A stretch of DNA of 64,000 nucleotides from a virus: positions 288,001 through 352,000 of IMG/VR virus record IMGVR_UViG_3300028840_006907; one strand, given 5' to 3'. Of the stretch, positions 4,336 through 55,962 are shown in pieces. Under the pieces are notes generated by a model. It was not told the origin of the DNA, ran no database searches, and was given only the letters and a program-made list of their open reading frames with translations. Position 1 is the first letter of the stretch. Every line of letters starts with the position of its first letter. A program made the position numbers and the translations under genes.

Positions 4336-7320
4336 ATGGCAGAGCAATTAAAAGTTGGATGGGTCGGATATGGGGGTAATAGTTGGATGGCTGAGGATCT
4401 TCGGCCAGTTATAGAAAAGCTAGGAATGACTTTATTCACGATTCATGAACATGATAACGCAGATATTAAATGGGAAAAGGATAACTGGTTCAATCATTTA
4501 AAAAAAGCTGATATAGTTATAGCTCCAGCTAATTATAAAAAACAACCTGCAAAGAGTGCAAATCGATTAATACAATCAATGTCAATGGGTAAACCTGTCA
4601 TATGTTCTCCTTTACCTGCATATTTAGATGTGGCTAAAAAACATCCTGGTTCATTTCTTCTAGCTGATGTCCCGGAAGAATGGGAGGAATGTTTAAAATT
4701 GCTTAGAGATAATCCTTCTTTTCGTAAACAGATGAGTGAGAAGGCTCTAGAAGCTGTTGAAGATTTTTCGATAAATGTCATAGGAAATAAGTGGCTAGAA
4801 TTATTAGAGAAAGATGTACCAATAAAAAAAGATACTGAATCGAATAAAGTTCTTATTACAGATATAATCATACCTACATATAAAAATCTTCGTGGCTTGA
4901 AGTTATGTATTGAGAGTATTCTGGAGTGTACGTTAGTGCCGTACAATATTATAATTGTAAATAATGGAACTGATGAGGAATTGCATAACTATTGTTCTCA
5001 ATTGGTAAATGTAACTTACATAAAAAAAGACAGACTTAATTTTGCCCAAGCCATGAATGTCGGGATTAAAGCAGGTGATTCTGATTTAGTCGTTCTATTA
5101 AATGATGATGTTATTGTCAGTAAAGGATGGCTTATGAATTTGAAATATGCCTGTACTGAAGATGTGGGTGCAGTAGGACCTTTAAGTAATTGTGATAAAT
5201 CCTGGCTCCATAATCATGATATCAATATTGGTGGAGTAGAATTACTGCCTGGTTCAAATACTTTTGAACAAATTGAGCCTATTATTTCTCAGATATATAA
5301 TTATGAATCTCCTTTTTTAGAAGAACCTGAACGAAAATGGGTTGCATTTTATGCTACTTTAATTCCTCGGTCAGTAATAGAAGAAGTAGGTTTTTTAGAT
5401 GAGTCCTTTACAAATTCGGGAGAGGATGTTGATTATTGTAACAGGATTATGAAGTTAGGGTATAAAATAAAACAGACCTATAAAAGTTTTGTATTTCATT
5501 TCGGAGCTGTAAGTAGGAAATTACTGGAGCAGGAAGATAAGGGCACTTATCAGAAAGCTGATGAGGAGACTCAAGAATATTTAAAGATCAAGTATTCAAA
5601 ACCAACAGTAATAATCTATTCCGGTGCCAGTTGGGAGAGATGGAGTTATAAGTCTCTTGAACAGGGGGGTATTGGTGGTAGTGAAGTTTGGCAGATAAAT
5701 GTTTGTCGTGAGTTAAATAAATTGGGTTATAGAGTAATCAGTTTTAATGATTCCCCGGAAAAGGAAATGTGGGAAGATGGGATTCAATATCTTCATTATG
5801 GAGAATTTTCGAAATGGTGTGATGGTAACTATGCCGATTACGCAATTATAAGTAGAACAACCGATCCTTTACATCATCCTTTAAGAGCTGGAAAAATATT
5901 TATAATGGTTCACGATGTCTGGTTACTTTCTGCTAGAGATCAATTATTCCTTGATAAAGTAGATAAATTTTGTGTACTTAGTAAATGGCATTGGGATTTT
6001 TTTAAAGGTCACCATGGAATCCAAGATGAATCAAAATTGGCGTTGACTTCTAATGGGATAGATTTTAATCGTTATGATAACAAAAATATTGAAAGACATC
6101 CTTATAAAATGTTTTACAGTTCTTCCCCGGATCGAGGTCTTGATACACTCCTTTACCTATTTCCCTTTATTAAGGAAAAAATTCCAGAACTTGAACTCCA
6201 TATTTATTATGGATTTAACAATTGGGAAAAGGCAGTGAAGATGAGAAAAAACCAGATTGAGATAGATAGAATGAATAAAATAAAAAAGGATATGGAACAA
6301 CCTGGGGTATTTTATCATGGCCGAGTTGGTCAGAAGGAGCTAGCTGAAGCGCAATTAGAATGTTCTCTTTGGGCCTATCCGACGGATTTTGAAGAAGTTT
6401 TTTGCATCACTGCTATTGAGGCTCAAAGAGCCAGAATCCCTGTATTAGCAACGAATTACGCTGCTTTACAGACAACAGTAGGTGACTCAGGAATTCTAAT
6501 AGGAAATGGCATGAAAGGAGAATCTTATACACGAGATTATCGATTAAAATTTGTAGATGAGTGTATAAAAGTTTTAACAGATAAAGAATATAGAGAACAC
6601 TGGATTGAGAAAGGTTTAAAAAATACGGAGAAATATTCTTGGGAACAAGTGGCTAAAAATTGGAAGAAATTGTTTGAAAAAAGTGATCAAAAAGTAGAAG
6701 CAAAAATTATAGATGAAAAAGAATACAAGAAAGATCGAGTGCTAGTTCATGAAATGAAAATAAGTTCTAATTATATGCCAGATCCTCACAGCCATTTAAA
6801 TAATGAGAGAGATCGTTTTCATTATTATAAAACACTTAATGCTTTCGTTTCATCAAATTCATGTAGTGCATTGGATGTGGGTTGTTTTGATGGGTGGATT
6901 GATTTTCTTCTTATAGAACAAGGATTTAAATTAACTGGAGTTGAGTTGATGGAACCTCTTGTTCAAGCTGCTCGAAAATATGCAGAAGTTAAACAACTTG
7001 ATTATACAATTTATCAGGGTTTTTTTGAAGAGATTGAGATAGACCAGAAATTTGATTTAGTGATATGTTTGGAGACTTTGGAACATATTGATTTAAAACT
7101 TGTCCCTGAGTATATACAAAAAATGAAAAGTCTTGCTACAAAGGGTCTTTTCATATCACTCCCGGATCAGAAACATGAAGATAATACCCAGCATTTATGG
7201 ACACCTACTGAAAATTTAATAAGAAAAATGTGGGGTAATAAAAAGAATTTTTCATTGGAATACCATACTTATCAGGATTCAAATTTACCCGCTAATTGGT
7301 TAATTTATTTCGAAGTGTAG
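4336..7320 (+). CDS. 994-aa multidomain glycosyltransferase / methyltransferase fusion
   Basis: Four segments. ~4336-4830: GT-B C-terminal-half-like. ~4858-5536: GT2 (IIIPTYKN, LLNDDVIVSKGW, GEDVDYCNR). ~5608-6676: GT4/GT1 (GGIGGSEVW, EVFCITAIEAQRARIPVLATN). ~6825-7320: class I SAM methyltransferase (ALDVGCFDGW, LVICLETLEHI). Confidence 0.85.
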   Translation: MAEQLKVGWVGYGGNSWMAEDLRPVIEKLGMTLFTIHEHDNADIKWEKDNWFNHLKKADIVIAPANYKKQPAKSANRLIQSMSMGKPVICSPLPAYLDVAKKHPGSFLLADVPEEWEECLKLLRDNPSFRKQMSEKALEAVEDFSINVIGNKWLELLEKDVPIKKDTESNKVLITDIIIPTYKNLRGLKLCIESILECTLVPYNIIIVNNGTDEELHNYCSQLVNVTYIKKDRLNFAQAMNVGIKAGDSDLVVLLNDDVIVSKGWLMNLKYACTEDVGAVGPLSNCDKSWLHNHDINIGGVELLPGSNTFEQIEPIISQIYNYESPFLEEPERKWVAFYATLIPRSVIEEVGFLDESFTNSGEDVDYCNRIMKLGYKIKQTYKSFVFHFGAVSRKLLEQEDKGTYQKADEETQEYLKIKYSKPTVIIYSGASWERWSYKSLEQGGIGGSEVWQINVCRELNKLGYRVISFNDSPEKEMWEDGIQYLHYGEFSKWCDGNYADYAIISRTTDPLHHPLRAGKIFIMVHDVWLLSARDQLFLDKVDKFCVLSKWHWDFFKGHHGIQDESKLALTSNGIDFNRYDNKNIERHPYKMFYSSSPDRGLDTLLYLFPFIKEKIPELELHIYYGFNNWEKAVKMRKNQIEIDRMNKIKKDMEQPGVFYHGRVGQKELAEAQLECSLWAYPTDFEEVFCITAIEAQRARIPVLATNYAALQTTVGDSGILIGNGMKGESYTRDYRLKFVDECIKVLTDKEYREHWIEKGLKNTEKYSWEQVAKNWKKLFEKSDQKVEAKIIDEKEYKKDRVLVHEMKISSNYMPDPHSHLNNERDRFHYYKTLNAFVSSNSCSALDVGCFDGWIDFLLIEQGFKLTGVELMEPLVQAARKYAEVKQLDYTIYQGFFEEIEIDQKFDLVICLETLEHIDLKLVPEYIQKMKSLATKGLFISLPDQKHEDNTQHLWTPTENLIRKMWGNKKNFSLEYHTYQDSNLPANWLIYFEV

Positions 7321-8930: not shown

Positions 8931-10280
8931 ATGGAACAAAAATTATCGGTTATAGGATTAGGTAAATTGGGCTGTACAATGATGGTATGTTTTGCTCATA
9001 AAGGATGGGAAGTTATAGGGGTTGATGTTAATGAATTAACTATTGAAACTATTCTACGAGGTCGGAGTCCTATCGATGAACCTTTTGTAGAAGAGATGAT
9101 AAGTGATAATGCAGAAAGGATAAGAGTAACATCTGATTGTGAAAATGCTGTTTTAAATAGTGATGTAAGTTTTGTAATAGTTCCTACTCCCAGTAAGGAA
9201 GATGGGTCTTTTTCGACAGAATATGTTGAAAATGCTACAATGGAAGTTGCGAAAGCTTTGACAAAAAAGAACTCTTATCATTTAATTGTAATTACTTCTA
9301 CTGTTCTTCCTGGAGACAGTCTTCGAATTTCTTATGAGATTGCTCGGGAGTCAGGGAAAGAACTAGGAAAGGATTTCGGTGTTGTTTATAATCCTGATTT
9401 CATAGCACTCGGTAAAATTGTCAGCGATTTTTTAAACCCTGACATGATCCTTATCGGTGAGTACGATGAGAAGTCAGGAGATATCATTCAAGACATACAC
9501 CTGAAACTTATAGATAGTAATCCTACTTTTCATAGGATGAATTTCTTTAATGCTGAACTGGCGAAAATTTCTCTTAATGCCTACTGTACTTTGAAAATTA
9601 CTTTTGCGAACATAATCGCGGAGATATGTGAGAATTTACCTGGCGGTGATTCTAATAAAGTCTTAAGTGCTGTAGGAGCTGATAGTCGGGTGGGTCAAAA
9701 ATATCTCAAAGGTGGTTTGGGGTACAGCGGACCATGTTTTCCGCGTGATAATCGAGCCCTCGCCCATTCTGCAAGGTTCTTTGGCACTACAAATTATTTC
9801 TGTGAGATGACAGATGCAATAAACAACTATCATAAAACAGAAAGAATATGCAATCTTTTATTGGGGTACATGGAAGAAAAGAACACAAAAGAATTAGCTA
9901 TACTTGGTTTATCCTATAAGGAAGATACTCCTGTGATTGAAGAATCTGTATCTATTTCAGTTATAAAAACTCTTTGGGAAAAAGGAATGAATATAAAAGT
10001 TTTTGATCCGGTTGCTATGGAAAATGCAAAAAGAGAATTAGAAGGTTATGATAATATTTATTATGCCTCTTCTGAATATGATTGTATAGATGGTACTTCC
10101 GTTTGTTTTATAGCTACTCCTTGGAAACAGTTCTTTAGTTTGAATCATCAAGAAGTAATAAAAAGAATGAAAAAGAGTTCTATTATTCTTGACTCATGGG
10201 GAGTATTACCTTATGACAGAGCAACTAATAGAGGCAAAAAAGTAGAGGTAAAACAACTAGGGAAAAATTATCAATCGTAA
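8931..10280 (+). CDS. nucleotide-sugar dehydrogenase (UDP-glucose/GDP-mannose dehydrogenase family)
   Basis: N-terminal Rossmann VIGLGKLGCTMMVCFAHKGWEVIGVDVN; catalytic-Cys region GGLGYSGPCFPRDNRAL; family-typical length of 449 aa. Confidence 0.85.
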   Translation: MEQKLSVIGLGKLGCTMMVCFAHKGWEVIGVDVNELTIETILRGRSPIDEPFVEEMISDNAERIRVTSDCENAVLNSDVSFVIVPTPSKEDGSFSTEYVENATMEVAKALTKKNSYHLIVITSTVLPGDSLRISYEIARESGKELGKDFGVVYNPDFIALGKIVSDFLNPDMILIGEYDEKSGDIIQDIHLKLIDSNPTFHRMNFFNAELAKISLNAYCTLKITFANIIAEICENLPGGDSNKVLSAVGADSRVGQKYLKGGLGYSGPCFPRDNRALAHSARFFGTTNYFCEMTDAINNYHKTERICNLLLGYMEEKNTKELAILGLSYKEDTPVIEESVSISVIKTLWEKGMNIKVFDPVAMENAKRELEGYDNIYYASSEYDCIDGTSVCFIATPWKQFFSLNHQEVIKRMKKSSIILDSWGVLPYDRATNRGKKVEVKQLGKNYQS

Positions 10281-10342: not shown

Positions 10343-11146
10343 ATGCCGAGATTAAGCTTTATTGTCACTGGACGAAATGACAATTATGACCAAAATTTTA
10401 ATGAACGTTTAACCATCGCTTTAAGAAGAAATATAAAATCCCTTCCAGACGCTGAATTCATTTTTGTAGAATGGAATCCTTATTTAGACCGCCCATTAAC
10501 ATGTTCAAAATTAAAAAGGACTTTTGGAGATCGAGTTAAATATTATGTAGTTCATCCTAAATATCATAAATATTATTGTAACATTGATGGTTTTCTTGAA
10601 TACCCTCCAAAAAATATCGGAATACGTAAGGCTACAGGTGAATTTATTATTTGTACAAATTCAGATGTAATTTTTTGTCCAGATCTAGTTCATTGTATGA
10701 ATATGCATTTGGAAAAAAATGTCCTTTATCGTGCTACTCGAATTGATATCCGACCAGATTATCTTAATGTAAGTTTCCCCCTTCATCCAAAATTTAAGCT
10801 TGAAACAAATCAAGGTCCTATGAATGCAGCGGGTGATTTTCTTTTAATGCATCGGGATCTATGGTATAAAACTACTGGTTATTGCGAGGAATACCCGTGG
10901 CAGAGATTACATAAAGATGCTCAGATAGTTTATTTGCTTTCTAATAAAAGAGGGTATGAAGTTCGAAACATAGGATCTATGACACATTGGAGACATCCTA
11001 GCTCCTGGTCTAATGGAAAATGTCGAGCTAGAGTAGGTGATGTGAATTGGGATTTTCAAAAATGTAATTACAAAATGAATAAAAAAACATGGGGTCTCAC
11101 GTTTACAGATGAGGTCGAAAAAGACGGCATAATTTGGCTAATTTAA
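10343..11146 (+). CDS. putative glycosyltransferase (GT-A-like)
   Basis: LSFIVTGRNDNY N-terminus and ICTNSDVIF acidic motif resemble GT2/GT7-type enzymes; assignment tentative. Confidence 0.4.
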   Translation: MPRLSFIVTGRNDNYDQNFNERLTIALRRNIKSLPDAEFIFVEWNPYLDRPLTCSKLKRTFGDRVKYYVVHPKYHKYYCNIDGFLEYPPKNIGIRKATGEFIICTNSDVIFCPDLVHCMNMHLEKNVLYRATRIDIRPDYLNVSFPLHPKFKLETNQGPMNAAGDFLLMHRDLWYKTTGYCEEYPWQRLHKDAQIVYLLSNKRGYEVRNIGSMTHWRHPSSWSNGKCRARVGDVNWDFQKCNYKMNKKTWGLTFTDEVEKDGIIWLI

Positions 11147-11176
11147 ATTTACATATAGATATTGAAAGGAGATTGT

Positions 11177-12151
11177 ATGAAACGTATATTGGTTACTGGA
11201 GCAGGCGGTTTTATTGGAGGCCATTTAGTCACTCGATTGAAAGAGGAGGGCTATTGGGTTCGTGGAGTTGATATTAAAGAGCATGAATATAAGAAGACTG
11301 ATGCAGATGAATTTTATCTTAAAGATTTGAGAATAATGCAAAATTGTCTTACTTCATGCGCTGATATTGATGAATGTTATACATTAGCTGCTGACATGGG
11401 TGGTGCAGGATTTGTTTTTACTGGTGAGAATGATGCTGATATCATGCATAATTCTGCGAAGATAAATTTAAATATGGCTGAAGCTTGCCGAATACAAGGA
11501 GTAAAGAAGATATTTTATTCCTCTTCAGCGTGCATGTATCCTGCTCATAATCAAACCGATCCGGATAATCCTTTACTTTCTGAGGATTCTGCTTATCCTG
11601 CAGCTCCCGATAGTGAATACGGGTGGGAAAAACTTTTCTCAGAACATCTTTATTTAGCTTATAACAAAAATTATGGACTGGATGTTCGTGTGGCAAGATT
11701 TCATAATATTTTTGGAGTTTTGGGAACATGGCAAGGTGGAAGAGAAAAAGCTCCTGCTGCATTGAATCGTAAAGTAGCTATGGCTAAAGATGGTGATGTA
11801 ATCGAAGTGTGGGGACCTGGTACTCAAACACGTTCTTTCCTTTATATAGAGGAATGTATTGAAGCAGTACGTCGTTTCATGGAATCAGATTTTTTAGGCC
11901 CTGTAAATATAGGTTCTGAAGAAATGATTTCAATAAACGATCTTGCGAAAATGGCCATAGATATTAGTGGTAAAAAACTTACTATCAAAAATGTGGAAGG
12001 TCCTGTAGGAGTTATGGGCCGTAATTCAGATAATAATTTATATGAAGAAAAGGTTGGATGGAGACCTTCAAAACCTTTACATTATGGTATGGAAAAGACT
12101 TATGCTTGGATAAGTGATCAAATTAAACAAATTTATCCCTTTAGAAAATAG
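11177..12151 (+). CDS. GDP-mannose 3,5-epimerase homologue (extended SDR)
   Basis: RBS aaaggag, ATG 11177. VTGAGGFIGGHL. Long collinear similarity to plant GME recalled from memory: DEFYLKDLR, LAADMGGAGF, SSSACMYP, RFHNIFGVLGTWQGGREKAPAA, TRSFLYIEEC, NIGSEEMISIN, GRNSDNNL. Confidence 0.85.
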   Translation: MKRILVTGAGGFIGGHLVTRLKEEGYWVRGVDIKEHEYKKTDADEFYLKDLRIMQNCLTSCADIDECYTLAADMGGAGFVFTGENDADIMHNSAKINLNMAEACRIQGVKKIFYSSSACMYPAHNQTDPDNPLLSEDSAYPAAPDSEYGWEKLFSEHLYLAYNKNYGLDVRVARFHNIFGVLGTWQGGREKAPAALNRKVAMAKDGDVIEVWGPGTQTRSFLYIEECIEAVRRFMESDFLGPVNIGSEEMISINDLAKMAIDISGKKLTIKNVEGPVGVMGRNSDNNLYEEKVGWRPSKPLHYGMEKTYAWISDQIKQIYPFRK

Positions 12152-12154
12152 CTT

Positions 12155-12856
12155 ATGGAATTAATAACAAAAGCAGTTATAATGGCTGGTGGAGAGGGTA
12201 CTCGGTTAAGACCTTATACAGAAATGACTCCTAAAGCAATGTTAGAGGTTAACGGTATTCCTCTCTTACGTTTAATGATAGAGAGACTTCATAGTTTTGG
12301 TATAACTCATTTCTATTTAAGTGTAAATTATCTCTCGAAAGTAATCTGTGATTATTTCGGTGATGGATCTAAATTTGGGATTAATATCACTTATATAAAA
12401 GAACCTTATTCGATGGGGACCGCAGGTTCAATTAGTATGGTTGATATTGAAGAACCTTTTTTGGTTATAAATGGAGATGTTTATACCAGTCTTGATTTTA
12501 GAGATCTCTTTGTAGAATTTAGAAGATCTAAATCAGATCTATTAATATGTTGTAGGGAGCAATTATTAAAAACAGATTATGGTGTTATTGTAAAAGAAGA
12601 TGACAGGATAACTTCCTGGGTTGAAAAACCTGAGTTTACTCATTACATAAGTTGTGGTATCTATGTATTCAAACCAGAGATTGTAAAATATATACCTAAA
12701 GAACATTTTTTTAATATGAATCATTTAGCTGAAGCGGTTATTGAAAAGAATAAAAAAGCTGGATTTTATTTAATGGATGATCTAGATATCTGGATTGATA
12801 TAGGAACTATTGAAGAATATAATAAGGTCAAGGAATTGTTAACAGTAAAAAAATAA
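12155..12856 (+). CDS. sugar-1-phosphate nucleotidyltransferase
   Basis: AVIMAGGEGTRLRPYTEMTPKAMLEV matches the GGxGTRLxPxTxxxPK NTP_transferase signature. Confidence 0.85.
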   Translation: MELITKAVIMAGGEGTRLRPYTEMTPKAMLEVNGIPLLRLMIERLHSFGITHFYLSVNYLSKVICDYFGDGSKFGINITYIKEPYSMGTAGSISMVDIEEPFLVINGDVYTSLDFRDLFVEFRRSKSDLLICCREQLLKTDYGVIVKEDDRITSWVEKPEFTHYISCGIYVFKPEIVKYIPKEHFFNMNHLAEAVIEKNKKAGFYLMDDLDIWIDIGTIEEYNKVKELLTVKK

Positions 12857-12865
12857 GAGGATAAA

Positions 12866-13759
12866 GTGAGAGTTGTATTTATTGGTTGCGTCAATTTCAG
12901 TAAAGCAATGTTGGAATATGCTTTAGAAATAGAGTGCCTTGAAATAGTGGGTATCGTGACAAAATCAGAATCCAATTTTAATACAGATTTCTGTTCTTTG
13001 GCCCCTTTAGCCCAGGAACATAATATTTCTTATCTTTTATACGATCAATTAAAATCGGAAAGTGGACTCAATAGTTGGGTTGAATTAAAATTTCCTGATG
13101 TGATCTTTTGTTTTGGTTGGTCCCATTTATTAAAAGCTGAACTTATAGAAATTCCTAAAATAGGAGTCATAGGACATCATCCTACAATGCTTCCTAAGAA
13201 TAGAGGGCGACATCCAGTAATATGGGCGTTAGCTTTAGGATTGGAGTATACTGCTTCAACTTTTTTCTTTATAGATCCTGGGGTGGATTCTGGGGATATT
13301 CTAGATCAAATCCCTGTAAATATAAATTTTGATGATGATGCTAGTATTCTCTATCAGAAGATCACAGTGACTGCAGGAAAGCAATTAAAAACATTTTCTC
13401 CTCTTTTGGAGAAAGGAGAATATATAGTTGTTAAACAAGATATGAGTAAAGCTACATGGTGGAGAAAAAGGTCAAAAGCTGATGGATATATTGATTGGCG
13501 TATGAGTTGTTTTTCCATTCATAATTTAGTCCGGGCTTTGACTTGTCCTTATGTAGGGGCTCATTGTGAATTTAACAATAGGGATATAAAGATCTGGAAA
13601 GTTAGAATAATGTATAAAGGATTAGATGATATTGAACCAGGTAAAATAATCGATTTAAATAGAAATAAAAATGAAATCTATATAAAGTGCGGGGATGGAG
13701 TTATGTGTATCTATGATCATGAATTTGATCCTCTGCCTGAGATCGGAACTTATTTATGA
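12866..13759 (+). CDS. sugar N-formyltransferase (Fmt/ArnA-N family)
   Basis: GTG start with RBS aagagg; HHPTMLPKNRGRHPVIWAL (SLLPxxRG-type) and IDPGVDSGDIL motifs; C-terminal Fmt-like domain. Confidence 0.8.
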   Translation: MRVVFIGCVNFSKAMLEYALEIECLEIVGIVTKSESNFNTDFCSLAPLAQEHNISYLLYDQLKSESGLNSWVELKFPDVIFCFGWSHLLKAELIEIPKIGVIGHHPTMLPKNRGRHPVIWALALGLEYTASTFFFIDPGVDSGDILDQIPVNINFDDDASILYQKITVTAGKQLKTFSPLLEKGEYIVVKQDMSKATWWRKRSKADGYIDWRMSCFSIHNLVRALTCPYVGAHCEFNNRDIKIWKVRIMYKGLDDIEPGKIIDLNRNKNEIYIKCGDGVMCIYDHEFDPLPEIGTYL

Positions 13760-14415
13760 AAATTATTGCCATTGCACCTCATCCTGATGATGAGACTCTG
13801 GGATGTGGTGGTACACTCTTGAAGCATCGGGATGCCTCAGATGATATTTATTTGGTTCTTGTTACTACAGCAGGTTCTGAATACAGTGAAGAGCATATCA
13901 ATAATAAATACAAAGAAATAGATAATGCCAACGAGATTTTTGAATTTAAGACTATCTTCGATTTGGGTTTCCCTGTTACTCATATTGGTTCTATAGATAT
14001 ATCAGAAATAATTGGTAAACTAATGGACACATTTAAATTAGTGGGTCCCGATATTATTTATGTTCCTTTCCCGTATGATATTCATACTGATCATCAAGTT
14101 GTTTTTGATGCGGTTTCTTCGTGTACAAAATGGTTCAGAATACCTACTTTGAAAAGAATACTAGCCTATGAAACTATATCTGAAACAGATTTTATTATTA
14201 GACCCGGTCCTTCTTTTATCCCTAATGTTTTTGTCAATATTGAAGATCACATTGATAAAAAGATAGAGGCTATGAAATGCTATGCTAGTGAAATTGCTAT
14301 GCCTCCTTTTCCTCGTAGTGAGGAGAATATCAGAGCCCTGGCAACATTAAGAGGTTCAACATCTGGTTTCAAAGCTGCGGAAGCTTTCATGTTGTTAAAG
14401 GAGATAGATGAATGA
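13756..14415 (+). CDS. PIG-L/LmbE family deacetylase
   Basis: AIAPHPDDETLGCGGTLLKH signature; HTDH downstream; ATGA coupling to upstream gene. Confidence 0.85.
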   Translation: MKIIAIAPHPDDETLGCGGTLLKHRDASDDIYLVLVTTAGSEYSEEHINNKYKEIDNANEIFEFKTIFDLGFPVTHIGSIDISEIIGKLMDTFKLVGPDIIYVPFPYDIHTDHQVVFDAVSSCTKWFRIPTLKRILAYETISETDFIIRPGPSFIPNVFVNIEDHIDKKIEAMKCYASEIAMPPFPRSEENIRALATLRGSTSGFKAAEAFMLLKEIDE

Positions 14416-15380
14416 GTAAAAAAGTTTTAGTTACTGGTGCAGGAGGATTTATAGGATCTCATTTAGTAAAACGGCTCATGGAATATGGGTATGATGTTAC
14501 AGCACTGGTAAAATATAATGCAAATGGTTCTTGGGGCTGGTTAGACACATTTCATCGTTCTGTAATCAAAGATATTAGAGTAGAGTTGGGTGATGTTCGG
14601 GATCCGGAACAAATGATGAGATATAAAAACATGGATATTATTTTCCATTTAGCTGCTTTGATAGGTATCCCTTATTCCTATGTAGCTCCTCGTTCATATG
14701 TCGATACCAATATAAACGGTACTTTAAACATGCTTCAGGTTTGTCGGGAAAATGGAGCTACTTATATTCATACATCAACTTCTGAGGTATATGGTACAGC
14801 CCTTTATGAACCTATTGATGAAAAACATCCTATCCAAACACAGAGTCCATATTCAGCTACAAAAAGTGCTGGAGATAGTTTAGCAAAGAGTTATTATCTT
14901 TCCTTCGATTTGCCCGTTATTATAGTAAGACCATTCAATACTTTTGGAACACGTCAATCTTTAAGAGCTGTTATTCCCACTATTATCAGTCAGGCATGTA
15001 AAGATGATGTTATAAAACTTGGAGATCCAAGTACCATGAGAGATTTCATTTTTGTGGATGATACTGTAGAAGGCTTTATAAAGGCCGCTGAGAGGGGAAA
15101 ATCTGGAGAGACTTATAATATAGGTTATGGCAAAAAAAGGTCAATAAGAAGTATTGTGGATGACGTAGGCAATATATTAGGTAAAGTTTTAAAAATTGAA
15201 TCGGAACCAGAGAGAATGCGACCTCCGAAGAGTGAGGTAAGAGTTCTTGTTTGTAATAATGAAAAAGCAAAAAAAGAATTGGGATGGGATATTAAATGGC
15301 CTTTTAAAAAAGGGTTGGAATATTTGATCTACGATTGGCAACGAGAAAACAAAGAAAGTAAAGATTTTTATCATGTCTAG
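14412..15380 (+). CDS. NAD-dependent nucleotide-sugar 4,6-dehydratase/decarboxylase-type SDR
   Basis: VTGAGGFIGSHL, TSTSEVYG, YSATKSAGD (YxxxK). Confidence 0.85.
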   Translation: MSKKVLVTGAGGFIGSHLVKRLMEYGYDVTALVKYNANGSWGWLDTFHRSVIKDIRVELGDVRDPEQMMRYKNMDIIFHLAALIGIPYSYVAPRSYVDTNINGTLNMLQVCRENGATYIHTSTSEVYGTALYEPIDEKHPIQTQSPYSATKSAGDSLAKSYYLSFDLPVIIVRPFNTFGTRQSLRAVIPTIISQACKDDVIKLGDPSTMRDFIFVDDTVEGFIKAAERGKSGETYNIGYGKKRSIRSIVDDVGNILGKVLKIESEPERMRPPKSEVRVLVCNNEKAKKELGWDIKWPFKKGLEYLIYDWQRENKESKDFYHV

Positions 15381-16449
15381 TATATTTTTACACATACCTC
15401 ATATAGGGGAAGAGGAAAAGGCAGAAGTAAATAAGGCTCTTAATACTGGAGAATTGACCTGTGGAAATTATTTAAATCAATTTGAAAAAGAATTAAGTGA
15501 AAGGATAAATTCTCCTGTTGTTTTATGCTCTTCTGGAACAGCAGCTTTGCAATTAGGTCTACATGCTATGGGTATAGGTCCAGGAGATGAAGTAATTGTT
15601 CCTAATATGTCTTTTGTTTCGACTATAAATTCTGTTTTATATATGGGTGCTACCCCAGTTTTGTGCGATGTAGGTGATCCTGAATACGAGCTTTCCATTG
15701 ATCCTGAAGAAATAATCGATCTCATAACTCCTCGAACTAAAGCTATAATGGTATCTCATCTTTGTGGGGGATACGGTGACATTGAAAAGATATTAGATAT
15801 AGCTAGTGCGTATAAAGTTGATGTCATTGAAGATGCTGCTCAGGCAGTAGGTTGTACTATGAATGGCAAAGCTTTGGGAACATTTGGAAAGTTTGGTGTC
15901 TATTCATTTAATGGGAATAAAATTATCACCACAGGTGGTGGAGGCACTCTTTTAACTTCAGATCGTGGAATGAGTCAGAGAGTACGAAATCTTCTTAATC
16001 AAGCGAAAGACATTTTAAATCCTTTTTCTCATATAGAGATGGGGTATAATTATAGAATCAGTAATATCCATGCTGCGATAGGTTGTGCTCAATTAAAAAA
16101 ATTAGACTCTTTTATTGATAAGAAAAAATTTATTCATGAGACCTATAAAAAGAAGTTAGACATAATAACTTATAAGGAAAAATCCAATTATTGGTTGAAT
16201 GTTTATAAAGTAAAAAAATTTAATCCTTATGAAGCTGTTTGGAATCTGGATTACAAAAGCATAGAGACTCGTCCTATTTATACCCCTTTTCATATGATGG
16301 ATTTTCTTAAAAAATATGGTGAGGATGAATACCCGGTTTCAGAGAAATTATATAACAGTCTTTTTTGTTTGCCATCTTATTTATCTCTTGATGAAGAGAT
16401 AATCGATAAAGTAGTGGATGAAATAAATAATTTGGAGAATAGTGAATGA
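15373..16449 (+). CDS. DegT/DnrJ/EryC1/StrS family sugar aminotransferase
   Basis: SGTAALQLGLHAMGIGPGDEVIVPNMSFVST and SFNGNKIITTGGGG (PLP lysine region). Confidence 0.9.
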   Translation: MSSIFLHIPHIGEEEKAEVNKALNTGELTCGNYLNQFEKELSERINSPVVLCSSGTAALQLGLHAMGIGPGDEVIVPNMSFVSTINSVLYMGATPVLCDVGDPEYELSIDPEEIIDLITPRTKAIMVSHLCGGYGDIEKILDIASAYKVDVIEDAAQAVGCTMNGKALGTFGKFGVYSFNGNKIITTGGGGTLLTSDRGMSQRVRNLLNQAKDILNPFSHIEMGYNYRISNIHAAIGCAQLKKLDSFIDKKKFIHETYKKKLDIITYKEKSNYWLNVYKVKKFNPYEAVWNLDYKSIETRPIYTPFHMMDFLKKYGEDEYPVSEKLYNSLFCLPSYLSLDEEIIDKVVDEINNLENSE

Positions 16450-17141
16450 AAAAACATATCCTTTTGATGTTTAATATGGGAAATAGTGGTGGGAAGTATT
16501 TCGAAGATATTTGTAATACTCACGAAGATGTTCAGATATGGCAAGAAGCAAATCACCTTTTAAAAGTAGATCATCTTGAGACACCAGTTCAGTTCGACAG
16601 GGTATATGCTTTTTTCATGAAACAGTATGAAGAAAATAAGAAAAAAACCATCGGATTAATAAAAGCTTTTGATCATCGGTTAATAGGATTGGCTGAAAGA
16701 ACTGGTGGGTCTATCATGCAGATGTTCAGACATCCTGTAGGTGTGGTGGGTTTTAAGACAGGCCATAAAATGGCTGAGTGTGAACAGAGAGGTTTGTTTG
16801 ACAAACTAGACACACCTGAAAAGATTTTTGAAGCTCATGTGGATTTTTATGCCTCAATATATAATTCCTATACGAAGAATGCTCATAAGTGGCCTGTTGT
16901 TAAATTAGAGGATTTAAAAAAGTCTTTACGGGAAAGAACTCCGTATTTTGAAGATGTAATGAAAAAAGCGCTGAAAGTTGACTGGCAACCGAAACATACA
17001 AAAAAAGTTATTAATATGGGAGGGCTTGAAGAGAATAGAGATCATTTTGATATTTGGAAATCATGGGAAGATTGGAAGAAAGATATTTTTCTGAAGTATT
17101 TCCAGGAAATAATGAAATTGTATATGTATGAATGGGAATGA
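16446..17141 (+). CDS. sulfotransferase-fold-like protein, paralogue A
   Basis: MFNMGNSGGKYF (P-loop-like) and MFRHPVGVV (RxP) motifs; clear paralogue of 20367-21158 (IGLIKAFDH, HVDFY, LEDL, IWKSWEDWKK). Confidence 0.4.
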   Translation: MKKHILLMFNMGNSGGKYFEDICNTHEDVQIWQEANHLLKVDHLETPVQFDRVYAFFMKQYEENKKKTIGLIKAFDHRLIGLAERTGGSIMQMFRHPVGVVGFKTGHKMAECEQRGLFDKLDTPEKIFEAHVDFYASIYNSYTKNAHKWPVVKLEDLKKSLRERTPYFEDVMKKALKVDWQPKHTKKVINMGGLEENRDHFDIWKSWEDWKKDIFLKYFQEIMKLYMYEWE

Positions 17142-17155
17142 TAGGAGGACGAAGT

Positions 17156-18151
17156 ATGAAAAATTTGGAAATCATAGCTGAGTTCGGAACTAATCATGTC
17201 GATCCTAATGGTAAAGTTCTTGAAAATATTGAGGATTTGATACATACACTAGCAGACAAAGGAGCGACTGCAGTTAAATTTCAGCTTTTTAAAGCTGATA
17301 ATTTAGTAGAAAAGAATACTGAAGTACATGGCCTTATAAAAAATTTGGAAATTGCTCTTGAAGAGCATGTCAGATTAAAAAAGATCTGCGAAGAAATAGG
17401 TTTGCGGTATCTTTGCACTCCTTTTTGCGTTGAGTCTTTGGATGCTCTTCTTAGTATAGGAGTAAAGGAAATAAAAATAGCCAGTTGTGATTGTGGTAAT
17501 TTACAATTGATGTCAGATATTGTACAACGTCATAACAAAATTCATCGAGTTATAATGGCTACAGGTATGTCAACATTGAATGAAATTGGTGTTTCCATTG
17601 ACATCCTTATTGATGGAGGATTTAATATTGATCTTTTACATTGTACAAGTGTTTACCCTACACCGATATACCGAGCTTCTCTAGACATGATAAGAGTCTT
17701 AAAAAAGAAGTGGGGTTTATTTAATATAGGATATTCGGATCATACATTGGGGACTGAAGTGGTGGGTATAGCCCGAGCTATGGGTTGTACCATTTTTGAA
17801 AAGCATGTAACTCCTGATAGAACAATGCCCGGTTTTGATCATGCTTATTCTTTTCCTATTGATGAATTTGATAAATATGTCGATGCTATCAAGAATGTCG
17901 ATCAGATAATAGGAGAAGAAAGAAAATACGTAGATAAAAAAGAAGCAGTATCTCGTGATGCCATGAAAAGAGGCATATGGTTTAAAAAAGAAGTGTTTAA
18001 AGGGCAGAAAATAACCAGAGATGATATCATTGTACGAAGACCGTTGAAAGGGGCCGTTAACCAGACTTACTATTTTTCTGTTCTTGGTAAAAAAGTAAAG
18101 AAGAATTTTAATGAGGATGATCCCGTTTTAACGGAGAATTTATATGAGTAA
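17156..18151 (+). CDS. nonulosonic acid synthase (NeuB/PseI/LegI family)
   Basis: RBS taggagg, ATG 17156; IIAEFGTNH...AVKFQLF N-terminal signature; YSDHTLG; C-terminal SAF-like segment. Confidence 0.85.
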   Translation: MKNLEIIAEFGTNHVDPNGKVLENIEDLIHTLADKGATAVKFQLFKADNLVEKNTEVHGLIKNLEIALEEHVRLKKICEEIGLRYLCTPFCVESLDALLSIGVKEIKIASCDCGNLQLMSDIVQRHNKIHRVIMATGMSTLNEIGVSIDILIDGGFNIDLLHCTSVYPTPIYRASLDMIRVLKKKWGLFNIGYSDHTLGTEVVGIARAMGCTIFEKHVTPDRTMPGFDHAYSFPIDEFDKYVDAIKNVDQIIGEERKYVDKKEAVSRDAMKRGIWFKKEVFKGQKITRDDIIVRRPLKGAVNQTYYFSVLGKKVKKNFNEDDPVLTENLYE

Positions 18152-19052
18152 AATAGGAATTCGATGTGATTGTGGACCGGTAATGGGCATGGGTCATATA
18201 TCTAGGCAGAAACTTATTTATGAAGAACTCATGAAATTGGACCACGAAGTTTCTTTTTTTGTAAAAAGAGAACGGAACATAGTTAAATCAATGGGACTTC
18301 CACTTTCAAATAAGATTTTAATGGATACAATGGATACTTTGATAATTGATTTAGTGGAAGGTTTTGAGGATTATGATTTTCCTCGAACTAAAATAGTTTT
18401 TTATGATGGTCCGGAAATGATACATTGTGATGCTGATATCATTTTTGCTTTAAATTATAAACAACAGAAATCCTGGTATAGAGGAACGGGTTATTATGTT
18501 GGGCTAGATTATATCCCGATGGATCCCAGCATTTCTAAAATAGAGAAAGAATTTGGTAATTTAGAAAAAATATTAATTATGACAAGTGGAATCGATCCTT
18601 GGGATATGCCAGGACAAATAGTTAGAGTTATTAAGGATCTGGGTTATGACATCACAGTTAAATTATCTAATGCTTATCCAAAAGATTGGATCAGTAAACT
18701 TGAGAAACATGCTGAGATAATTTTAAATGTGGATAGTGTTGCTTCATTATATGAAGAATATGATTTAATGATATGTACTGCAGGAAATGTGTTGTTCGAG
18801 GCTGCTGTAGCTGGTTTACCCTGTATAAGTTTTTCGACGGGTAAAGTTCAGGAGGGCCATGGGGCGTTTATGAGTGACAAAGGTTTTTCAGTTCATCTTG
18901 GAGGCTTTTGGAATAATACTGCTGAAGTTGGTTATTTGTCTGATGCTATAAAATTTTTAGCTGATAGATCGGATAGAGAACAAAGATCTGAGATAGGTCG
19001 TTCTATTTGTGATGGTAAAGGATTAGAAAGGATAATAAATATTATAGGGTAA
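18144..19052 (+). CDS. PseG-like nucleotide-sugar hydrolase / GT28-type protein
   Basis: IGIRCDCGPVMGMGHISRQ resembles the PseG GxGHxxR start; C-terminal TAGNVLFEAAVAGLPCI resembles the MurG/GT28 C-domain. Confidence 0.55.
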   Translation: MSKIGIRCDCGPVMGMGHISRQKLIYEELMKLDHEVSFFVKRERNIVKSMGLPLSNKILMDTMDTLIIDLVEGFEDYDFPRTKIVFYDGPEMIHCDADIIFALNYKQQKSWYRGTGYYVGLDYIPMDPSISKIEKEFGNLEKILIMTSGIDPWDMPGQIVRVIKDLGYDITVKLSNAYPKDWISKLEKHAEIILNVDSVASLYEEYDLMICTAGNVLFEAAVAGLPCISFSTGKVQEGHGAFMSDKGFSVHLGGFWNNTAEVGYLSDAIKFLADRSDREQRSEIGRSICDGKGLERIINIIG

Positions 19053-19055
19053 AAT

Positions 19056-19718
19056 ATGAAAACTATCGCATTTACATTGCCAGTAAGAAAGAACAGTCAA
19101 AGAGTAAAAAATAAAATGTTAAGACCTTTTGCAGGGAGAAGTTTATTTGAGATCTATTTGGATAAAATCGAATGTTTCAAACATTTGGTTTATGTTGTTG
19201 CCTATGAAGAAGAATTTATTAACATAGCTAAAAAAAGGGGATTTAAATATCTTCATAGAAGTGAAGAGTCTGCTAATGGGGAAACTTCTCCAGTTATCCA
19301 TAGTTATTTAAATGAGATGAAAGAAGATTTCATTTTTATGGCAACTGCGTGTTGTCCTTTGATGAAGACAGAGACTTTGAAAAATATCATGGTAGAGCTA
19401 TGTTCAAAACTCCATGATCCTAATTATCACGGTTTAATAACTGTAAAAAGATGTGGTAATGCTATTTGGAATTCAGAGAAGAAAGTAATGAATGATGATG
19501 TTCGAACTTTCAATACTAAGTTAAGAAAACCTTTTTACATCGAGACTAGTTCCGTTTTTGTTTTTAGACGTGAAAGATTTCTTAAACTAGGTGCATATTG
19601 GGATTTTGGTGATAAAGATCCCGATCTTTATGAAATTAATTCAATTGAAGCTACTGATATTGATACAATGGATGATTTCGAAGTAGCTGAAATACTTTAC
19701 AAAAGAAGGTTGTCATGA
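19056..19718 (+). CDS. CMP-nonulosonate cytidylyltransferase family (NeuA/PseF-like)
   Basis: LPVRKNSQRVKNKMLRPFAGRSL resembles the R-x-S-x-R-x-x-x-KN...G-x-(S/P)-L signature; ~220 aa. Confidence 0.6.
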   Translation: MKTIAFTLPVRKNSQRVKNKMLRPFAGRSLFEIYLDKIECFKHLVYVVAYEEEFINIAKKRGFKYLHRSEESANGETSPVIHSYLNEMKEDFIFMATACCPLMKTETLKNIMVELCSKLHDPNYHGLITVKRCGNAIWNSEKKVMNDDVRTFNTKLRKPFYIETSSVFVFRRERFLKLGAYWDFGDKDPDLYEINSIEATDIDTMDDFEVAEILYKRRLS

Positions 19719-20374
19719 AAAATTATGGCTATGCTGATATGAGTGAAAAAGAAAAATTATCTAAAGAACAAGTATTAGAATTTTGGAAAAATCCTATAAA
19801 CGATAATACTAATAAAAATGAGAACAATGATCCTGAGCATTATTTGAGTGGGGAAAAACGTAGCCGATATCTCGTTGAATTAATTAAAAGGCATTTACAT
19901 AAAGAAGCAAAAATATTAGAGATTGGTTGTAATGTCGGGAGGAATTTGCATTATCTATATGAAACAGGTTATAACAATTTAAATGGGATAGAAATTAATG
20001 ATAATGCTGTTCAAGTGATGCATAAAAATTATCCCGAATTATATGGAAGTGTAGGAATTTATAATTGTCCGGTTGAATCTATTATTACATCTTTTTCCGA
20101 TGAAGCCTATGACTTGGTCTTTACAATGGCTGTTTTAGAGCACATTCATTATGAGAGTGATTTCATTTTCTCTGAGATAGCTCGGGTAGCCAAAAGATGT
20201 ATAATTACAATTGAAGATGAAAAAACTACCTGGAGTAACAGACATTTTCCTCGTAATTATAAGGAGGTGTTTGAGAAGATCGGGAATTGGGTACAGATTT
20301 ATGATATGAATTGTGGTGGGATTAATATACTTGATGATCGATTTTGGGTAAGGGTATTTAAAAAGAATGTCTAA
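19715..20374 (+). CDS. class I SAM-dependent methyltransferase
   Basis: ILEIGCNVGRNL (motif I) and DLVFTMAVLEHI. Confidence 0.75.
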   Translation: MKNYGYADMSEKEKLSKEQVLEFWKNPINDNTNKNENNDPEHYLSGEKRSRYLVELIKRHLHKEAKILEIGCNVGRNLHYLYETGYNNLNGIEINDNAVQVMHKNYPELYGSVGIYNCPVESIITSFSDEAYDLVFTMAVLEHIHYESDFIFSEIARVAKRCIITIEDEKTTWSNRHFPRNYKEVFEKIGNWVQIYDMNCGGINILDDRFWVRVFKKNV

Positions 20375-21158
20375 ACGAATAGTGTTAGTCAGAAATATGG
20401 GAAACAGTGGCGGTGCCTGGTTAATGAAGGTATTTAATATGCATGAAAACATATTAATGTTTCAGGAATTAAACCAGATACTGAGGTTAAGATATGATTA
20501 TTCGGATATAAATAAGAAGAATCTAAATTACCCTCATGTTGACTATGATGTAAAAATAGCTCAACGGAGTCGTGATCTTAAAGGATTTTTATTTAATAGT
20601 AGAACTCAGTGTCATATAGCAACTAGTTTTCTTTTATATCAATATGATATTAGAAAAGAAGATGCGATTGGGTTAATAAAATGTTTTGATCATGAATCTA
20701 TAAGAGAATGTAGAGTAAAATGTCCTTCTGTTAAAGTTGTACAAGTTTTAAGAAATCCTATTGGTATAATAGATTTTTATATGAGTCAGGAAAATTTAAG
20801 GCAAATAGCCCATCATGATCCATATGAAATATCTTTTAAAAAACATGTGGATTTCTTTCATAATAAATTTATAGATTTTTGGGAAAATAATGAAAAAAAA
20901 GGTGAGAAAATTATACGACTAGAAGATTTGAATATATCATTGAAAGATGGAAATCCTTTCTTAAAAGACACTATGGAAGATTTATTTGAAGTTAATTTCT
21001 CAAATGAATTTATTGAAAAAATCAAACAAAATTTAGGTTATGGGAATGAAGGTAACCAGAATAAAGAGATATGGCAAAACTGGGAAGGATGGAAAAAAGA
21101 ATATTTCAAGAAATATTTCGAAAATCTAATGATGAATCTTGGCTATGAATTGAGGTGA
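20367..21158 (+). CDS. sulfotransferase-fold-like protein, paralogue B
   Basis: LVRNMGNSGGAWL and VLRNPIGIIDFY; paralogue of 16446-17141. Confidence 0.4.
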   Translation: MSKRIVLVRNMGNSGGAWLMKVFNMHENILMFQELNQILRLRYDYSDINKKNLNYPHVDYDVKIAQRSRDLKGFLFNSRTQCHIATSFLLYQYDIRKEDAIGLIKCFDHESIRECRVKCPSVKVVQVLRNPIGIIDFYMSQENLRQIAHHDPYEISFKKHVDFFHNKFIDFWENNEKKGEKIIRLEDLNISLKDGNPFLKDTMEDLFEVNFSNEFIEKIKQNLGYGNEGNQNKEIWQNWEGWKKEYFKKYFENLMMNLGYELR

Positions 21159-21161
21159 TAA

Positions 21162-21737
21162 ATGAATTTATTTGAATCTGCGTACTATACTGAAGAGGAT
21201 CTGAGAAAAGGCGGTTTTAAAAGTGTCGGTAAAAATGTTCAGATTGATAAAAGTTGCACGATAATAGGCTTAGATAAAATCACTCTAGGAGATAATGTTC
21301 GAATCGATGGTTACTGTTGTATTATTGCCACAAAAGAGGAAGTGATTTTCGGTTCTTATATTCATATAGGTTCGTTTTGTCATCTCTGTGGAACTGCAGG
21401 TCTTATAATGAAAGATTTTTCAGGTTTGTCACAAGGAGTTCGAATTTACTCCTCTTCTGATGATTATTCAGGAAAGTTTTTAACTAATCCAACTGTTCCC
21501 GATAAATACACAGGTATAATAAGAGAACCAGTTATTATAGGTAAACATGTTATAATCGGGGCTAATACTGTTATTCTTCCAGGAGTTGTTATAGGTGATG
21601 GGTCAGCTATTGGTGCCATGTCCCTTGTAACAAAAGACGTAGATAAAAATAGTGTCTATGCAGGTTGTCCAGCGAAATTTATAAAAACACGTTCAAAAAG
21701 AATATTTGATTTAGAGAAGAGGTTATTAAATGAATAA
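21162..21737 (+). CDS. left-handed beta-helix (hexapeptide repeat) acetyltransferase
   Basis: Hexapeptide periodicity, e.g. GKHVIIGANTVILPGVVIGDGSAIGAMSLVTKDV. Confidence 0.85.
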   Translation: MNLFESAYYTEEDLRKGGFKSVGKNVQIDKSCTIIGLDKITLGDNVRIDGYCCIIATKEEVIFGSYIHIGSFCHLCGTAGLIMKDFSGLSQGVRIYSSSDDYSGKFLTNPTVPDKYTGIIREPVIIGKHVIIGANTVILPGVVIGDGSAIGAMSLVTKDVDKNSVYAGCPAKFIKTRSKRIFDLEKRLLNE

Positions 21738-22443
21738 ATCAATTTTCATATGTTCAGGAGGTCGATGTGGTACACATTGGGTTCGGCCTATTCTTGCTCA
21801 GCTTTTAGATTTACAAACTGGGTTTGATTGGAAAGGATATAATCCAAATAAAATTCCCTTTAAAACAGAACCTGGAGCTATTTGGAAAATAAAGATGGTA
21901 GAAAAGAGAGAGCCAGGAGGAAGGATTTATTCAGGGCATATGCCAATTACAGAACTTCTACCTATTATCAGTTTAGTAAATATAATAATTCTTATAAGAG
22001 ATCCTAGAGATATGTGTGTTTCGGCTGCATATTATACTCCAGAAAGAAGAGTATTAACTCAAGAAGAATTTGAATCTAAATTTAATAATTTATTAATACA
22101 AGGAAGCCCGAATCCTGATTTTCATGAATCTTATATAGAAAGTAAGAATAAAATACCTCATTTTTTATTAAAATATGAAGATATGATTCATGATGATTAT
22201 GGCTCAATAGTTAAATTTTTAAATAATTCAGGTTATAAATTTGAAGAAGAAAAATTAAAATATGTACTTGATAAAAACTCATTCAAGAATTTATCAGGTG
22301 GACGAGAAGCCGGTGAGGAGGATAATACCGCTTTTTATAGAAAAGGTATTGTGGGTGATTGGGTAAATTATCTCTCTAATGGTTTACTTGAACAATATAC
22401 CGATAGGCATAAAACTTTGTTGGAAGAATGGGGGTATATGTAA
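21730..22443 (+). CDS. sulfotransferase (Sulfotransfer_1-like)
   Basis: 5'-PSB-like GGRCGTHW, 3'-PB-like IRDPRDMCVSAAYY, and FYRKGIVGDWVNY (RKGxxGDW). Confidence 0.8.
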   Translation: MNKSIFICSGGRCGTHWVRPILAQLLDLQTGFDWKGYNPNKIPFKTEPGAIWKIKMVEKREPGGRIYSGHMPITELLPIISLVNIIILIRDPRDMCVSAAYYTPERRVLTQEEFESKFNNLLIQGSPNPDFHESYIESKNKIPHFLLKYEDMIHDDYGSIVKFLNNSGYKFEEEKLKYVLDKNSFKNLSGGREAGEEDNTAFYRKGIVGDWVNYLSNGLLEQYTDRHKTLLEEWGYM

Positions 22444-22444
22444 T

Positions 22445-32615: not shown

Positions 32616-32623
32616 TTAATTCC

Positions 32624-50816: not shown

Positions 50817-50823
50817 AGGTAAT

Positions 50824-55859: not shown

Positions 55860-55962
55860 ATGAGTACCTCTTTTTAGTATATTACTTATTATAACAGGTA
55901 TTAGAGTTATTGTCAATATTTCATTTAATAAATATGGAATTCATTAATTTATAGGGAAAAAG

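Follow-up and report, generated by a model that had tools for sequence, protein, structure and literature searches.

A GDP-mannose 3,5-epimerase in the glycan-building island of a probable huge phage and its likely partnership with a GT10-like glycosyltransferase

We analyzed a stretch of 64,000 nucleotides, hereafter the window, taken from the IMG/VR virus record IMGVR_UViG_3300028840_006907 (positions 288,001 to 352,000). A glycan-building island of about 45 kb within it holds, on the plus strand at 11177-12151, an open reading frame (ORF) whose 324-residue product is confirmed by sequence comparison as a full-length orthologue of GDP-mannose 3,5-epimerase (here called GME) and not an ordinary UDP-sugar 4-epimerase. 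The same island encodes, on the minus strand at 33287-34090, a glycosyltransferase of 267 residues resembling the GT10 (alpha1,3/4-fucosyltransferase) family. We favor, with moderate confidence, the reading in which ORF 11177-12151 is a GME and the GT10-like enzyme would consume its product by adding L-galactose.

The ATG at 11177 is the start used by public gene callers; the mechanical ORF (11162-12151) opens with TTG. Pfam places the translation in the extended short-chain dehydrogenase/reductase (SDR) 'Epimerase' family (E=1.2e-40), and the NAD+ motif GxxGxxG is found as GAGGFIG within TGAGGFIGGH (residues 7-16). When the protein was compared with the PDB using phmmer, its residues 3-318 aligned with residues 31-344 of the plant enzyme AtGME (2c59; E=1.7e-104), a match well outside what chance could produce. 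The five best matches were all GDP-mannose 3,5-epimerases, while the best non-GME SDR reached 87 bits. An earlier note, made from the sequence alone, had described this ORF as collinear with plant GME and had quoted the segments ARFHNIFGVLGTWQGGREKAPAA, NIGSEEMISIN and GRNSDNNL. All of them occur in the translation, and the collinearity extends over the full length, with a score of 353 bits to 2c59. Identity to AtGME (2C59/2C54) amounts to 51.6% over 312 aligned positions. Unlike the plant enzymes, the window protein is devoid of the N-terminal and C-terminal extensions of about 28 and 30 residues, respectively. Furthermore, plant GME serves ascorbate and cell-wall metabolism, whereas the window protein, with its predicted activity, lies in a phage glycan island.

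The residues that define a GME are the triad Ser143/Tyr174/Lys178, the acid-base pair Cys145/Lys217, Arg306, which acidifies the cysteine, Arg243 and Asn203 (AtGME numbering; PMC8787198). Their counterparts in the window protein are S117, Y148 and K152 for the triad, C119 and K191 for the acid-base pair, R282 for Arg306, R219 for the diphosphate-contacting Arg243 and N177 for Asn203, so that the catalytic Cys, Lys and Tyr of characterized GMEs are all present. None of these eight positions varies in an alignment of 184 sequences from plants, bacteria and viruses, made up of AtGME, the window protein, 119 homologues of bacterial or metagenomic origin and 63 from viruses. The Cys/Lys pair is absent from GalE, and in Fcl/GMER the base is a histidine and the equivalent of Arg306 a lysine (PMC8787198). 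In agreement with this, the window protein scored 66.4 bits with the GalE model TIGR01179 (cut-off 262.3) and 105.5 bits with the Fcl model NF047922 (cut-off 500). The GalE score and the conservation of the GME residues both speak against a clustering with ordinary UDP-sugar 4-epimerases. The GM35E enzyme of Methylacidiphilum fumariolicum, about 50% identical to its plant counterparts, proved active as a GME (PMC6678494). Since the mechanistic residues are invariant and the window protein lies at the same distance from AtGME as this active enzyme, the assignment is confirmed, and we predict GME activity with high confidence.

The epimerase itself is by no means exceptional. It had been supposed that GME is uncommon in bacteria and, as far as was known, in phages; database counts contradict both points. 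A search of 5.8 billion proteins returned at least 8000 protein clusters matching the window GME at E<=1e-60. Among the matches listed, the closest named relatives, at about 70% identity, are encoded on the chromosomes of Bacteroidota (Raineya, Ekhidna, Algoriphagus, Marinoscillum and Pedobacter), and some relatives carry the JGI label 'GDP-D-mannose 3,5-epimerase'. In INPHARED, 37 phage records have a true GME orthologue, defined by E<=1e-80; each is either a cyanophage or a marine viral single-cell assembly. In IMG/VR, a GME relative occurs on at least 584 viral contigs. Most cyanophage GMEs are labeled 'UDP-glucose 4-epimerase' in the databases. ORF123 of S-SCSM1 has, however, already been named GME in a cyanophage paper of 2022, where it adjoins Gmd and Fcl (PMC9602691). 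Given these counts and this publication, GME is not a rarity among bacteria and no novelty among phages; the window GME adds one more sequence to a familiar family that is widespread in bacteria and had been noticed in cyanophages before.

The window protein is 55-61% identical (tblastn) to the cyanophage GMEs S-SCSM1 ORF123, S-T4 gp119, S-SM2_192 and S-SSM7_253 (T4-like cluster GC1237). Like them, it is, in all probability, borne by a phage and belongs to a glycan cluster with fucosyltransferase-family glycosyltransferases and methyltransferases. On the other hand, cyanophage GMEs usually head an operon with a GT10-like or GT11 gene, whereas the window GME is 21 kb away from its GT10-like gene. 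In a neighbor-joining tree, which is not robust, the window GME groups with the huge-phage copies near those of Bacteroidota, apart from the cyanophage clade. This separate placement suggests that huge phages and cyanophages may have recruited GME independently.

The second element of our reading, the GT10-like ORF at 33287-34090, had also been pointed out in the earlier note and is well supported. It matches PF00852 (Glyco_transf_10) over residues 118-229 with 38 bits (gathering cut-off 23.9; E=1.7e-9), and its segment FSVTIENSQYETYWTEK aligns to the donor motif of HpFucT and AtFucTA (FxLxFENSxxxxYxTEK). HpFucT N240, Y246, E249 and K250 correspond to N178, Y184, E187 and K188; functional roles are said to have been attributed to these HpFucT residues by Sun and co-workers in 2007. 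In alignments of the GT10-like family, E177, Y181, Y184, E187 and K188 never vary; the same holds for N178 in alignment A1, and in A3 its conservation is at least 90%. The AlphaFold2 model (pLDDT 93.9) retrieved GT10 structures at Foldseek PDB ranks 1 to 18 without exception, including 2nzx, 9s6a, 8d0w and 7yro (E 6e-9 to 7e-6, TM about 0.5). The window enzyme thus resembles the GT10 fucosyltransferases HpFucT (2NZW-2NZY), FucTA/FUT11 (9S6A) and human FUT9 in its GT-B fold and C-terminal donor motif. It differs from them by its length of 267 residues with a much smaller N-terminal acceptor domain, by an identity of about 15-23% and by belonging to a subfamily almost confined to phage contigs and mostly partnered with GME. 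With the scan patterns used, this GT10-like family was found on 274 IMG/VR contigs, with the contig of the window not among them, versus two short contigs in 185,579 prokaryotic genomes, so that no bacterial context could be gained for it from the genome scan.

Evidence for a partnership between the two genes comes from their linkage across phages. Homologues of the window GT10 are present in 19 phage records, and in 13 of these a GME gene lies within 3 kb on the same strand. In S-T4 and S-SM2, two cultured phages of Synechococcus whose GT10-like proteins are gp118 and S-SM2_193, respectively, the GME and GT10-like genes even overlap, by 20 bp in the former and by 14 bp in the latter. The genes of the window GT10 operon (27859-34090) have homologues in similar order in GME-led cyanophage operons, namely a 220-aa protein, two methyltransferases, a 285-aa protein and a split thiamine pyrophosphate (TPP)-dependent enzyme. 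Because of this collinearity, the window can be regarded as the same module with the GME gene relocated by 21 kb. In loci L100 and L103/L104, the GT10 proteins are 60-63% identical to that of the window; they are encoded on a phage contig of 102 kb and on a T4-like one with gp13 and gp23, and their clusters contain GME and are free of Gmd and Fcl. An 88-kb contig syntenic with positions 34-43 kb of the window shows the same split arrangement as the window.

We then turned to the 80 best GT10-like matches among the 274 IMG/VR contigs; for 78 of these matches the upstream sequence extends over at least 1.2 kb. GME lies upstream on the same strand in 56 of these 78 loci and is directly adjacent in 27. 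The remaining 22 comprise 15 loci with Gmd and/or Fcl and 7 short contigs. Altogether, GME or Gmd/Fcl accompanies the GT10-like gene in 71 of the 78 loci, while GME and Fcl were never seen together among them. The GT10-like transferase would thus nearly always be supplied by one of two alternative routes to a GDP-beta-L-hexose, which almost never co-occur beside it; according to the route present, the gene neighborhood points to GDP-L-galactose or to GDP-L-fucose as donor. In four related IMG/VR loci (L060, L069, L087 and L090), GME and the GT10-like gene stand with Gmd and no Fcl was found; this gene set implies a third GDP-sugar product, which could be, for example, a 6-deoxy sugar formed via a different reductase.

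Phage genome records give a similar picture. Among 83 of the 84 Gmd-bearing records, only S-SCSM1 (two records) carries GME and Gmd in one phage; S-T4 and S-SM2 are not among the Gmd-bearing records listed, Fcl not having been searched for in them. In S-SRM01 and the 735-kb LR756503, the GT10-like gene (gp307 in S-SRM01) goes together with Gmd, and GME is lacking. In Bellamy and S-CAM9, which do not possess a GT10-like gene, GME is overlapped by a gene of GT11, the alpha1,2-fucosyltransferase family, and a GT6 gene comes next, all overlapping (L107, 5068-6587, and L109, 5110-6641, respectively). The ABO blood-group transferases belong to GT6. Neither phage appears among the 83 of 84 Gmd-bearing records listed. 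Finally, in a sample centered on GME itself, with 80 loci out of at least 584 IMG/VR contigs, Gmd was seen a single time and Fcl not at all, and a GT10- or GT11-like gene lies within 6 kb in 23 loci. This last proportion indicates that other transferases also use GME products.

The window conforms to this pattern as regards the missing route. The earlier note had seen no gmd or fcl gene in the window, and this absence extends to about 10 kb on either side, that is to 82 kb of the 388,651-bp contig. The only two SDR genes in these 82 kb are GME and the gene of a LegB-like dehydratase.

On this basis, the following pathway can be proposed. GDP-mannose would be provided by the host or by the nucleotidyltransferase encoded at 12155. 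The tightly bound NAD+ of GME would transiently oxidize C4, allowing the Cys/Lys acid-base pair to epimerize C5 and C3, with GDP-beta-L-galactose as product and GDP-L-gulose as side product. The GT10-like transferase is the most likely consumer of this product and would add L-galactose, which is 6-hydroxy-L-fucose, to an acceptor on the virion or on the host surface, the transferred sugar probably being O-methylated afterwards. GME would in this manner be a one-gene, NADPH-free substitute for the two-gene Gmd and Fcl route to GDP-fucose. A parallel can be drawn with the Gmd, Fcl and fucosyltransferase clusters of S-SRM01, P-SSM2, S-CAM7 and the colanic acid locus of Escherichia coli, which likewise lead from GDP-mannose through a GDP-beta-L-hexose to a fucosyltransferase-family enzyme. 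The difference is that a single epimerase stands in for the dehydratase and the epimerase-reductase, and that the C6 hydroxyl is kept. Supporting the chemistry of the last step, AtFucTA and FucT-V, which belong to GT10, and FUT8 transfer L-galactose from GDP-L-galactose, a donor that GT10 enzymes take in vitro, and in the Arabidopsis mur1 mutant L-galactose replaces fucose (PMC8787198). That the GT10 enzyme of the window might transfer L-galactose or a related L-sugar had been suggested beforehand; the conserved GME-GT10 operons and the near either/or distribution of GME versus Gmd/Fcl now lend this comparative-genomic support.

Several observations nevertheless weigh against this interpretation. 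In the window, the two genes are 21 kb apart on opposite strands and do not form one operon, and the GME gene is part of another conserved block, as in the related loci L008 and L098. No GT10- or GT11-like gene is nearby in 57 of the 80 GME-bearing viral loci. The absence of gmd and fcl applies to 82 kb of a contig of about 389 kb, and the host could supply GDP-fucose. In LR756503, Gmd is 40 kb away from the GT10-like gene. Most of the 80 GT10-like loci come from cyanophages related to one another; at 90% identity the loci form 32 clusters, no pair falls below 51%, and the locus counts consequently overstate independence. Independent lines are provided by the divergent copies of the S-SSM7 type, by L100, by L103, by the arrangement seen in huge phages and by the two separate occasions on which the tree shows a switch to Gmd/Fcl. 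In that tree, the window GT10 falls as an outgroup to the clade partnered with GME and also to the one partnered with Gmd/Fcl, so that it could not be assigned to either. Likewise, no residue positions track the partner, since the Gmd/Fcl-switched L018, L047 and L019 keep every 'GME-type' residue. This lack of partner-tracking residues fits donor promiscuity as well as specialization.

These points lead to an alternative that we consider rather unlikely and rank below the L-galactose reading, namely that the GME is genuine while its product is used by another transferase of the plus-strand block, the GT10-like enzyme being an ordinary fucosyltransferase whose GDP-fucose would come from the host or from gmd and fcl genes elsewhere in the 389-kb genome. 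All characterized GT10 enzymes are, to our knowledge, fucosyltransferases, and the pairing of the GT10-like gene with a distant Gmd in LR756503 would be in line with this. One bacterial contig also has its GME within a typical exopolysaccharide cluster with other glycosyltransferase families, and the scarcity of GT10- and GT11-like neighbors in the GME-centered loci points in the same direction. Three candidates could be considered in the window: a 994-aa fusion of GT2, GT1 (GT4-like) and methyltransferase domains identified with Pfam (4336-7320, plus strand), a GT-A fold glycosyltransferase of 267 residues without a Pfam family (10343-11146, plus strand) and a GT2-like gene at 23767. The first two form, together with a UDP-glucose 6-dehydrogenase (UGDH) gene (8931-10280, plus strand; TIGR03026, 335 bits), the block in which GME is embedded, 21 kb away from the GT10-like gene and on the opposite strand, and the order GT fusion, UGDH, GT-A and GME is common to the window, L008 and L098. 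The GME of L008 is 80% identical to that of the window, and homologues of the fusion protein in L008, L098 and L099 are 58-67% identical to it. In L099, however, the GT fusion, UGDH and GT-A genes are kept without GME, which argues that the transferases of the block do not depend on it.

The GT-A enzyme can be taken further. Its AlphaFold2 model (pLDDT 91.5) has as best Foldseek matches the chondroitin polymerase K4CP, in first position, TarP and WrtF. As an L-galactose transferase it was rejected, for it tracks UGDH even where GME is missing; its persistence beside UGDH in L099 pairs it with UDP-glucuronate and not with the GME product, and it is more probably a glucuronosyltransferase. Its family was found on metagenomic contigs only, several of 470-590 kb, always directly 3' of UGDH. 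We also observed LAGLIDADG inteins in the UGDH of L008 (6657-9152) and in the GME of L098 (10827-12770, 647 aa; 589-kb contig), while the window copies of both genes are intein-free. Besides the independence of the block, the assumption of a fucosyltransferase fed from elsewhere has against it the presence of GME or Gmd/Fcl beside the GT10-like gene in 71 of 78 loci, with GME overlapping upstream in several lineages, and the failure to find gmd or fcl in 82 kb.

Another explanation would be that the GME-like protein acts on a different nucleotide sugar, such as a GDP-linked nonulosonic-acid intermediate or GDP-heptose, or that it is a plain 4-epimerase. It could draw on the region directly 3' of GME, where a module of about 11 kb (12155-23116, plus strand) opens with a sugar-1-phosphate nucleotidyltransferase gene (12155-12856, plus strand; Pfam NTP_transferase) and contains LegB-, LegC/PseC-, NeuB-, PseG- and PseF-like genes, a complete-looking nonulosonic-acid pathway. 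In Campylobacter, the pathway of the LegB/LegC/NeuB type starts from a GDP-sugar. Moreover, the database label of most cyanophage GMEs is 'UDP-glucose 4-epimerase', and the substrate range has been examined for very few GMEs. We nonetheless judge this explanation very unlikely. Cys145/Lys217, Arg306, Arg243 and Asn203 all have their counterparts in the window protein, the GalE and Fcl models remain far under their cut-offs, and the 52% identity to AtGME equals that of a biochemically validated bacterial enzyme. Furthermore, the whole nonulosonic-acid module is absent from the closest relative L008, where GME is followed by homologues of the window genes from 23109 onwards, and L098 also retains GME without it.

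The nucleotidyltransferase had been mentioned in the earlier note as the neighbor of GME; its presence stands, while the link to GME that this implied does not, given that the adjacency is not conserved in L008. The best NCBIfam match of its product is the mannose-1-phosphate guanylyltransferase model NF052502, at 135.6 bits for a cut-off of 440, and its PDB scores are similar for UGPase (102 bits), GMPPB (88 bits) and HddC (70 bits). As a dedicated supplier of GDP-mannose it was set aside, in view of these similar scores for several specificities and of its belonging to the inserted nonulosonic-acid module. This module also encodes an ArnA-like formyltransferase, a PIG-L deacetylase, a hexapeptide acetyltransferase, a methyltransferase and a sulfotransferase, a content that suggests an N-formylated or otherwise decorated sugar as product. 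Two sulfotransferase-like genes and a rhodanese-domain gene were noticed at 21730-22443, 47967-48536 and 49032-49610.

One would also wonder whether the contig is viral at all. The window contains no capsid, portal or terminase gene detectable with PHROGs, Pfam or tblastn, it has no nucleotide match to known phages, and its GME is 70% identical to chromosomal genes of Bacteroidota. It could therefore be argued that the island is an ordinary bacterial surface-polysaccharide locus, an idea to which we give very little credence. The exact window GME protein is found on the JGI metagenome contig Ga0180437_10000019, which measures 388,651 bp, and in other sources on contigs reaching 469,617 bp, and the majority of the window ORFs have no Pfam or PHROG family. 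A homologue of the Tad3 (anti-Thoeris) family (50788-51252, plus strand) lends indirect support to an origin from a virus of bacteria. An 835-aa mosaic protein (53409-55916, minus strand) combines Mom-like, DUF7487, homing-endonuclease-like and D5-like segments with C-terminal helix-turn-helix motifs. Very large ORFs (1158-1305 aa) and a Laminin_G_3 protein are encoded downstream. The inteins of the relatives, the near confinement of the GT10-like family to IMG/VR contigs and the close relatives of the GT10 operon on T4-like contigs with gp13 and gp23 likewise disagree with a bacterial locus. A thymidylate kinase gene is present too. A scan of the window for tRNA genes found none. Since hallmark genes were not found in the window, the viral assignment rests on indirect features, and we hold the contig of 389-470 kb to be a huge phage as probable only.

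Coming back to the L-galactose reading, the operon of the GT10-like gene deserves a description, all of its genes being on the minus strand. Operons of this type occur in numerous marine phages, headed there by GME or else by Gmd and Fcl. Immediately upstream of the GT10-like gene lies that of an FkbM-family methyltransferase (34090-34710; PF05050, TIGR01444), a pair which the window shares with S-SRM01, L100, where the two are fused, and L103. A 220-aa protein (32624-33286), for which neither Pfam nor PDB sequences gave a match, accompanies the GT10-like gene; its homologues stand beside that gene in every lineage examined (S-T4 gp115/gp116, S-SM2_195, L100, L102 and L103). It is followed by a Methyltransf_4-like protein (32001-32615; PF02390, E=7.7e-6), which has a paralogue at 30039-30656, is 36% identical to S-T4 gp117 and has homologues in L100 and L102. 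Next come a class I S-adenosylmethionine (SAM)-dependent methyltransferase (31513-32001; Pfam Methyltransf_23/11), 60% identical to gp114 of the S-T4 GME-GT10 operon, and a conserved 285-aa protein (30656-31513), 42% identical to SSM2_199 of the S-SM2 GME-GT10 operon. The TPP-dependent enzyme, related to E1 and transketolase (Pfam E1_dh, Transket_pyr), is split into two halves (27859-28485 and 29514-30038) with a radical SAM enzyme (28478-29545; Pfam Radical_SAM) between them. It is 46-51% identical to SSM2_198 of S-SM2, which is encoded there by one fused gene. Close to the GT10-like gene of the phage LR756501 (735 kb), the genes at 27859-30038 have counterparts that are 50-62% identical. The TPP-dependent enzyme was noted at 27859-30038 in the window, at 11688-12896 in L015 and at 32689-34895 in L105.

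The broader point is thus not the epimerase, which is ordinary, but the coupling of phage fucosyltransferase-family transferases to two GDP-L-hexose routes, of which the GME route dominates our sample (56 of 78 loci). As a tentative generalization, which we hold with less assurance than the reading of the window itself, the phage branch of GT10, and also of GT11, may consist of natural L-galactosyl- or L-gulosyl-transferases, with GME replacing Gmd and Fcl in marine cyanophages, T4-like phages and huge phages and with glycans containing methylated L-galactose, carried by virions or infected cells, as the outcome. If these transferases do use GDP-L-galactose, many phage annotations as 'UDP-glucose 4-epimerase' and 'fucosyltransferase' would be wrong, L-galactose would be common in the phage-directed glycans of the ocean, and enzymes of about 265 residues would offer the ready L-galactosyltransferases for glycoengineering that reviews on GME have called for. 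Were the branch indeed made of native L-galactosyl- or L-gulosyl-transferases, it would provide the first native non-fucose donor for GT10 and reveal a widespread and so far unrecognized type of viral glycan.

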